Source: an uncultured Eubacteriales bacterium
GTDB taxonomy: Bacteria > Bacillota > Clostridia > Oscillospirales > Oscillospiraceae
Assembly: GCA_900552475.1 (NCBI GenBank)
Contig: USAC01000001.1
Coordinates: 8,444 to 72,443, forward strand
Direction of reading: 5' to 3'
DNA length: 64,000 nt
Shown: piece by piece, positions 58,918 through 60,366 of the stretch
Layout of the letters: every line of letters starts with the position of its first letter
Numbering within the stretch: position 1 is the stretch's first letter
The notes under the pieces: model-generated
What the model was told of the DNA's origin: nothing
Seen by the model: only the letters and a program-made list of their open reading frames with translations
Database searches by the model: none
Translations under genes and position numbers: made by a program

Positions 58918-60366
58918 ATGTATCTGTATAATTCAGCCACCCACAAGAAAGCGGAGTTCACCACCCACACCCCCGGCCATGTGGAGATGTACACCTGCGG
59001 CCCGACCGTCTACCACTTTGCCCACATCGGCAACCTCCGCTCCTATATCATGGAGGACGTGCTCGAGAAGTACCTGCGCTTCGCGGGCTATGACGTCAAC
59101 CGCGTCATGAACATCACCGACGTCGGTCACCTGACCTCCGACGCCGACGAGGGCGAGGACAAGATGCTCAAGGGCGCCCGCCGCGAGCACAAGACCGTCA
59201 TGGAGATCGCGCTGTACTACACCGACGCGTTCTTCGAGGACTGCCGCAAGCTCAACATCAAGCGCCCCGACGTCGTCCAGCCCGCGACCGGCCTCATTGA
59301 CGACTATATCAGGATCATCACGAAGCTGCTCGACACCGGCTATGCCTATCAGGCCGGCGGCAACATCTATTTCGACACCAGCAAGCTCGAGCGCTACTAT
59401 ATCTTCAACGACCACAACGAGGAGGATCTGGCCGTCGGCGTCCGCGAGGGCGTGGAGGAGGATCCCAACAAGCGCAACAGGAACGACTTCGTCCTCTGGT
59501 TCACCAAGTCCAAGTTCGAGGATCAGGCCCTGAAATGGGACTCCCCGTGGGGCGTGGGCTACCCCGGCTGGCACATTGAGTGCTCCGGCATCTATATGTA
59601 GTTTTACGGCGAGTACCTCGAGCTGCACTGCGGCGGCGTGGATAACGCCTTCCCGCACCACACGAACGAGATCGCCCAGTCCGAGAGCTACCTCGGCCAC
59701 CCGTGGTGCCCCCAGTGGTTCCACGTCGCCCACCTCAACACCGACCACGGCAAGATGTCGAAGTCGAAGGGCGAGTTCCTGACCGTTTCCCTGCTTGAGC
59801 AGAAGGGCTATGATCCGCTGGCCTACCGCTTCTTCTGCCTGCAGAGCCACTACCGCAAGGGACTGCTCTTCAGCTGGGAGAACCTCGACAACGCCGCCCT
59901 TGCCTATAACAAGCTGCTCGCCAAGGTCGCCGCGCTCAAGCCCGGTCAGGACGAGGTGGAGCCCGCCGCGCTCGAGGAGCTCAAGGCGAAGTTCCGCAAG
60001 GCGATGGACAGCGACCTCAACACCTCCATGGGCGTGACAGTGCTCTATGACGTTCTCAAGGCCAAGACGACCGACGCGACGAAGCTGGCCGCGCTCGACG
60101 CGCTCGACAGCGTCCTCGGTCTGAAGCTGCTGGAGAAGGCGGAGACGCTGCGCGCGAAGCAGGCGGCCGCACCCGCCGCGGGCGGCTTCACCGTCGTCAG
60201 CGAGTCCGGCGAGGAGGACGCCGACGTTGAAGCGAAGATCCGCGCCCGCGCCGAGGCGAAGAAGGCGAAGAACTTCGCCGAGGCCGACCGTATCCGCGAC
60301 GAGCTGAAGGCAGCGGGGATTGAGGTCACCGACGTCCCCGGCGGCGCCAAGTGGAAGCGCATCTGA
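58918..60366 (+). CDS. cysS: Cysteine--tRNA ligase, interrupted by an in-frame TAG at 59599..59601
   Basis: HIGN and KMSKS motifs. The two ORFs 58918..59601 and 59638..60366 are in the same frame, separated only by TAG. Aligned position is the conserved Lys of the AMxxKYLG motif. Confidence 0.85.

Follow-up and report, generated by a model that had tools for sequence, protein, structure and literature searches.

The in-frame amber codon of a gut Oscillospiraceae cysS gene lies in a 29-bp aberrant patch, probably a local assembly error

In its canonical T-box-regulated form, the cysS gene of Firmicutes is preceded by a T-box leader, in which the specifier is UGC, and by a terminator, and encodes a class I cysteinyl-tRNA synthetase (CysRS) with HIGH and KMSKS motifs and zinc ligands. 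In typical Firmicutes, CysRS is essential and single-copy. In-frame UAG codons are known from pyrrolysine genes, i.e. methylamine methyltransferase genes that occur with pylTSBCD. Local assembly errors that are unsupported by any read have been documented in metagenome-assembled genomes, MAGs (Chen et al. 2020, Genome Res, PMC7111523), and assembly-derived internal stops are common in bacterial genomes, in dependence on coverage and assembler (Cooley and Wright 2024, BMC Genomics, PMC11017572).

The cysS gene described here belongs to a common human-gut Oscillospiraceae (Oscillibacter-related) species, and was found in a 64-kb stretch of DNA (the window) from one public 99-kb contig. Its reading frame is interrupted by a TAG codon (Table 1), which is most likely not a real biological feature. 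The codon lies in a 29-bp stretch that is probably a wrong consensus, i.e. a local assembly or consensus error of this contig. The underlying biology is that of an ordinary T-box-regulated cysS in a prevalent gut Oscillospiraceae, and the real gene of the species encodes an intact, T-box-regulated CysRS of 482 aa, in which codon 228 is AAG (Lys). The main value of the case is one of caution, as an amber codon at a lysine position of an essential aminoacyl-tRNA synthetase invites hypotheses of recoding and pyrrolysine, and comparison with conspecific sequences places this codon in a short, unique and corrupted patch.

Table 1. Features of the cysS locus, substitutions of the aberrant patch, and breaks in other assemblies at the same place (positions in the window).
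Feature	Position	Strand	Details
T-box leader of cysS	58644-58847	+	RF00230, 59.7 bits, E = 2.5e-12
Leader terminator hairpin	58840-58873	+	CCTCTCAGACC...GGTCTGAGAGG, then T run; read from sequence
cysS, class I cysteinyl-tRNA synthetase	58918-60366	+	482 codons, broken at codon 228; translation
Aberrant patch	59594-59622	+	29 bp, six substitutions in comparison to every reference
Substitution	59594		C (reference) to A (window)
Substitution	59595		C (reference) to T (window)
Substitution	59599		A (reference) to T (window)
Substitution	59603		A (reference) to T (window)
Substitution	59605		A (reference) to T (window)
Substitution	59622		C (reference) to G (window)
In-frame TAG	59599-59601	+	AAG (Lys228) in all references
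Downstream cysS fragment per gene finders	59638-60366	+	242 aa, GTG start
cysS terminator hairpin	60381-60410	+	13-nt perfect arms; inverted-repeat search
Break in L036	59584-59621		SPAdes, coverage 11; N10 gap in place of these positions
Break in L016	59609-59621		NCBI MAG; N10 gap, right edge as in L036 (…NNNCCTGCAC)
Break in L033	59586		independent route; N10 gap
Break in L017	59561		MEGAHIT; contig start; own spurious TAT>TAA at 59604, 44 nt from contig end

The cysS translation was 99% identical to an intact 482-aa protein (P0001), and its residues 2-482 matched by phmmer the structures 3sp1 (Borrelia CysRS, the closest solved structure; E = 9e-107), 8qhp (3.5e-85) and 1li5 (E. coli CysRS; 2.8e-80). 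The Pfam domains PF01406, PF09190 and PF23493 (tRNA-synt_1e, DALR_2, CysS_C) were identified on cysS orthologues including P0001, and together with the full-length similarity to CysRS structures they place the gene in the CysS class. Both signature motifs were present, HIGN at residues 36-39 in the position of HIGH, and KMSKS at residues 279-283, but the frame is not unbroken, since the TAG codon is situated between them. The T-box leader was matched over its full length (model positions 1-219), yet its 59.7 bits remain below the Rfam gathering score of 93; UGC (Cys) occupies the specifier position (58738-58740), and the terminator hairpin behind the leader is strong. The locus thus resembles the canonical Firmicutes arrangement in its leader, specifier, terminator, 482-aa class I enzyme, HIGH (here HIGN) and KMSKS motifs and zinc ligands, and the remainder of the gene is the allele of the species. 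The 29-bp patch alone sets the cysS of the window apart.

The initial annotation had described two cysS ORFs in the same frame that are separated only by TAG, and this description was borne out: the first ORF (58918-59601, 227 aa) ends in GWHIECSGIYM, and the second continues with FYGEYLELHCGG... to a TGA stop at 60364-60366. With the truncation, two of the four zinc ligands are lost along with the KMSKS loop and the anticodon-binding domain. No Shine-Dalgarno-like sequence was found upstream of the GTG codon (CACTGCGGCGGC) at which gene finders start the downstream fragment. The break falls between the zinc ligand Cys222 and the H-x-GG, PHH and KMSKS elements, and this position and the lacking Shine-Dalgarno sequence speak against a functional two-piece enzyme.

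The codon in question presumably corresponds to K215 of E. coli CysRS. Lysine was found at this position in 120 of the 120 closest homologues and in 8qhp, and Glu in 3sp1, so that the position, originally noted as a conserved lysine, is usually but not universally Lys. It had been noted initially that a single A-to-T change would create the stop. The codon change is indeed AAG to TAG, but it is only one of six clustered substitutions, which also replace four neighbouring conserved residues. In terms of protein, GISMKYNGEYLD is turned into GIYM-stop-FYGEYLE through the codon changes TCC>TAT (S226Y), AAG>TAG (K228stop), TAT>TTT (Y229F), AAC>TAC (N230Y) and GAC>GAG (D235E). None of the five codon changes is synonymous, all but one of the six substitutions are transversions, and the reference bases hit are three A and three C. 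Among the 120 closest homologues, the S, N and D residues were invariant, K was always K, and Y229 was replaced by F in three; D235 belongs to the D-x-H-x-G-G motif.

The window was compared with loci of independent assemblies (designated L001 onwards) that covered ca. 55 kb of it, and was 99.7-99.96% identical to them. Besides the patch, and leaving aside the edge of a strain-specific island (6635-6715), the window had eight private single-nucleotide variants (SNVs) across ca. 55 kb, which were isolated and kilobases apart. At this background rate, the chance of six private changes within 29 bp is ca. 1e-13 (Poisson), so that the patch must have arisen as one event or as one artefact, and not as an ordinary point mutation. 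A genome-wide poor assembly or a hypermutator was rejected, considering the eight isolated SNVs, the absence of indels in the window in comparison to L001, and the internal stop being confined to cysS among the 45 mapped genes of the window. With one gene only affected in 64 kb, the assembly is not poor overall.

Within cysS, exactly the six patch positions differed from L001, L002 and L004-L008, the remaining 1443 nt being identical to L001, and L003 had two further differences. Wild-type bases were present at the patch in 17 of the 17 reference loci covering it, which originated from various samples and assemblers. One of these loci was from a sister species, represented in GTDB by an Oscillospiraceae MAG (amino-acid identity 94%), and its 47-mer over the patch was the same as in the conspecific wild type. 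In protein searches the intact P0001 was found on 371 contigs, in addition to many near-identical variants, whereas the 227-aa truncated product was found on one contig only (99,368 bp, NCBI/ENA) in a collection of 15 billion proteins; this contig is evidently the one from which the window originates. The exact 227-aa product was absent from the gene-position index. The exact mutant 36-mer and a degenerate pattern with the TAG fixed gave no matches in JGI metagenome contigs, and a pattern allowing either base at the six sites had one match among the GTDB species representatives, a Hadza Oscillospiraceae MAG with the wild-type sequence. The patch is accordingly confined to one assembly, in contrast to the agreement among independent assemblies of the species, which is the pattern of a local assembly error.

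These comparisons bear directly on decoding of the UAG by pyrrolysine, by a natural amber suppressor tRNA or by programmed read-through, any of which would yield full-length CysRS. The alignment of the TAG with a lysine position, pyrrolysine being a lysine derivative, and the rarity of TAG among the stops of the 45 mapped genes of the window (TGA 25, TAA 18, TAG 2) are in accordance with such decoding, and the in-frame UAG in an otherwise intact ORF is a likeness to pyrrolysine genes. Genuine recoding sites are conserved, however, and this one is not, because the orthologous codon is AAG: lysine occupies the position in the whole set of closest homologues, and AAG was present in all examined sequences of this and the sister species, including each of the 17 DNA loci. 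Neither is UAG avoided as a terminator, as miaA (38226-39170) and the HlyD-like gene (39477-40688) end in TAG at normal lengths, and no other gene of the window has an in-frame TAG. No tRNA-CUA was detected in the 64-kb window by ARAGORN and Rfam searches, the three tRNAs being tRNA-Val, tRNA-Tyr and tRNA-Thr, and none of the Pfam annotations of genes called in the reference loci was of a Pyl family. In contrast to pyrrolysine genes, cysS is of an unrelated family, and the residues next to its UAG are corrupted; four conserved neighbours, D235 among them, carry replacements that are non-conservative or without precedent. Decoding of the UAG is thus exceedingly improbable. The initial view that genome-wide reassignment of UAG is unlikely had rested on the use of TAG as a true stop in these two genes. 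Concerning the three candidates then listed, sequencing or assembly error is the favoured one, a recent nonsense mutation is possible, and suppression or pyrrolysine is strongly argued against by AAG in the examined relatives, by the absence of tRNA-CUA from the window and by the use of TAG as a stop.

The patch could also be a real and very recent multi-nucleotide mutation that arose in a single event in the sequenced population, either as an error-prone polymerase patch during repair or by short-tract conversion from a donor sequence. The sequence does stand in the public record, six changes within 29 bp are what one event would give, a transversion-rich spectrum could suit an error-prone polymerase, and the lack of decay elsewhere in cysS is compatible with very recent origin. 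This reading is nevertheless unlikely. It would imply a new cysS pseudogene, tolerated only with a second CysRS or as a transient subpopulation in a low-coverage assembly, in a gene which is generally essential and single-copy in Firmicutes and which would lose the zinc ligands and domains named above. A lethal allele is not expected to prevail in the consensus of a population, and the mutant allele is known from one contig against the 371 with the intact one. Moreover, no donor or quasi-palindromic template was found within the window: ectopic donor, gene conversion and template switching were rejected as no second copy of the patch (up to three mismatches) and no new hairpin or quasi-palindrome was present there, and matches of at most 11 nt were at chance level. 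No second CysRS ORF was seen in the 64-kb window. A decaying pseudogene, for which several independent lesions are expected, was likewise rejected, the T-box leader and the rest of cysS being untouched, with no differences from L001 outside the patch in 1449 nt.

A local assembly error remains the preferred reading. The same strain lineage, recognised by its island sequence (3711-6706, 100% identical to the window), was elsewhere present at only ca. 3x coverage, and from this low coverage in sister samples we infer that the source is a short-read metagenome assembly. Coverage over 59584-59622 may have been too low or ambiguous in the source assembly, in a conserved active-site stretch where short-read metagenome assemblies of this species would repeatedly fail to join, probably due to low coverage and/or to sequence shared with co-resident relatives. 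Where the other assemblies have a gap or a contig end, the assembler or a gap-closing step could here have bridged the contig tips via error-bearing read ends, which would give 29 bp of unsupported sequence with a TAG by chance. The true reading at the patch would then be ATCTCCATGAAGTATAACGGCGAGTACCTCGAC. Two points stand against an assembly error: the patch consists of substitutions only, with no indel and with perfect flanks, which is not the most typical error of an assembler, and a source sequence for the wrong bases was not found in the searches.

The case is similar to the local errors documented in MAGs (PMC7111523) in that a short consensus stretch differs from every related genome and disrupts a protein-coding gene, that it is situated where other assemblies have scaffold gaps, and that it was deposited uncurated. 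It is dissimilar in consisting of substitutions only, and the absence of any supporting read, which defines those errors, is for this patch a property that we infer. With the spurious internal-stop pseudogenes (PMC11017572) it shares a core gene that is stopped in one assembly and intact in near-identical genomes, and a lineage with low coverage in sister samples, although that work presents genome-wide statistics and the present case is one gene in 64 kb.

Four further assemblies were interrupted at or close to the patch (L016, L017, L033 and L036). These breaks are of the coverage type, with contigs that either adjoin or lack 13-38 nt. From the gaps and the contig end at 59561-59622, split cysS products have entered the public protein collection, and this segment may be a systematic breakpoint caused by low coverage or by an inter-genome repeat. 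In communities with several related Oscillospiraceae, the patch region could act as such a repeat, because its DNA is identical even in the sister species and codes for the part of the enzyme that is most conserved. The disrupted loci were encountered via look-ups of the downstream 242-aa product and related fragments; such look-ups favour disrupted genes, and gaps were also present at 59680 and 59741-59753, so the enrichment of breaks is only modest. Other cysS fragments in the collection break at many positions, including frameshifts in long-read contigs. The co-location of the gaps with the patch is for these reasons supportive of an assembly error but not proof of it. The locus offers a concrete case of a conserved active-site-coding stretch in a prevalent gut species where short-read metagenome assemblies break or mis-join, and split genes from such breaks pass into public protein collections.

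The same breaks could be read as signs of a targeted hypervariable site, similar to those of diversity-generating retroelements (DGR), or of a hot spot of natural mutation within the active site of CysRS. Five assemblies had a gap, a contig end or a substitution within 59561-59622, and L017 had a different substitution (59604) within the same 12 bp. Against this, the protein patch is near-invariant in the 120 homologues and its DNA identical in the 17 loci, the gaps are coverage-type with contigs abutting or missing ca. 13-38 nt, and the look-ups are biased to disrupted genes. Mutagenesis of the DGR type, in which substitutions would be restricted to template adenines, with a template repeat and a reverse transcriptase nearby, was rejected, since only three of the changes are at A and the other three are at C; a template repeat was absent from the window when up to three mismatches were allowed. 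A hypervariable site or hot spot is hardly probable at all. The broader proposition that the patch is real throughout, i.e. clustered hypermutation of the CysRS active-site loop, survived by amber suppression, by a second CysRS or by a two-piece enzyme, at a natural hot spot that breaks the other assemblies too, is very unlikely. As hypermutation of an essential gene in one event it would be unusual, and the evidence is against it.

Additional disruptions were observed at the same locus. Single-base indels split the cysS, thyA or ACR_tran gene in the conspecific long contigs L003, L006, L030, L035 and L038, and these are further assembly-derived pseudogenes. L003 and L035 are suspected to be long-read assemblies because of their contig_NNNN names and lengths of 590 kb and 358 kb.

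Dense variation was also present upstream of cysS. At 58431-58455, there were 11 differences within 25 nt in comparison to L016 (positions 657-681), a strain which is 98.5% identical overall. This cluster lies in a 100-aa ORF without Pfam match (58273-58575) that was called in nearly 2000 assembly blocks. As L016 represents a naturally diverged strain, dense clusters of substitutions between strains can thus be natural near the gene.

Downstream, the region 60420-60685 between the convergent terminators of cysS and folA (DHFR) contained nested long inverted repeats, one pair with 31-nt arms (87% complementary, 195 nt apart) and another with 27-nt arms 20 nt apart, which share the motif GCCCC(C)CTACA / TGTAGGG. 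These repeats resemble a REP- or MITE-like palindromic element. The region is strain-variable; L016 differs from the window at many positions there, and L004 has an N gap.

At the other end of the window, more than 50 kb from cysS, positions 1-6715 comprised the strain-specific island, of which 1-6634 was unmatched in most conspecific contigs, with the boundary at 6635-6715; the proteins near cysS are common alleles. The island carried a 1155-aa ORF (1082-4549; 1109 aa according to gene calling, and weakly matched by the Pfam family Chlam_PMP), a 331-aa ORF and a DUF3592 ORF, and in its place most conspecific contigs had genes for ornithine carbamoyltransferase, an amino-acid permease and an agmatine-deiminase-like protein (PAD_porph). 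Only few samples contained the identical island sequence, i.e. WUHA17-1 (SAMN06233224, S074/S075), ERZ1310779, ERZ1310763 and SRR5558157. The island of this strain is also present on scaffold_234 (137,069 bp) of ERZ28656160. At the island boundary, a stretch of ca. 90 nt (6775-6864) had an 88%-identical second copy in conspecific contigs (L001, 19368-19455), located after the ProRS gene (L001, 17860-19299) ca. 4.3 kb beyond the 3′ end of the window, and it looks like a dispersed intergenic repeat.
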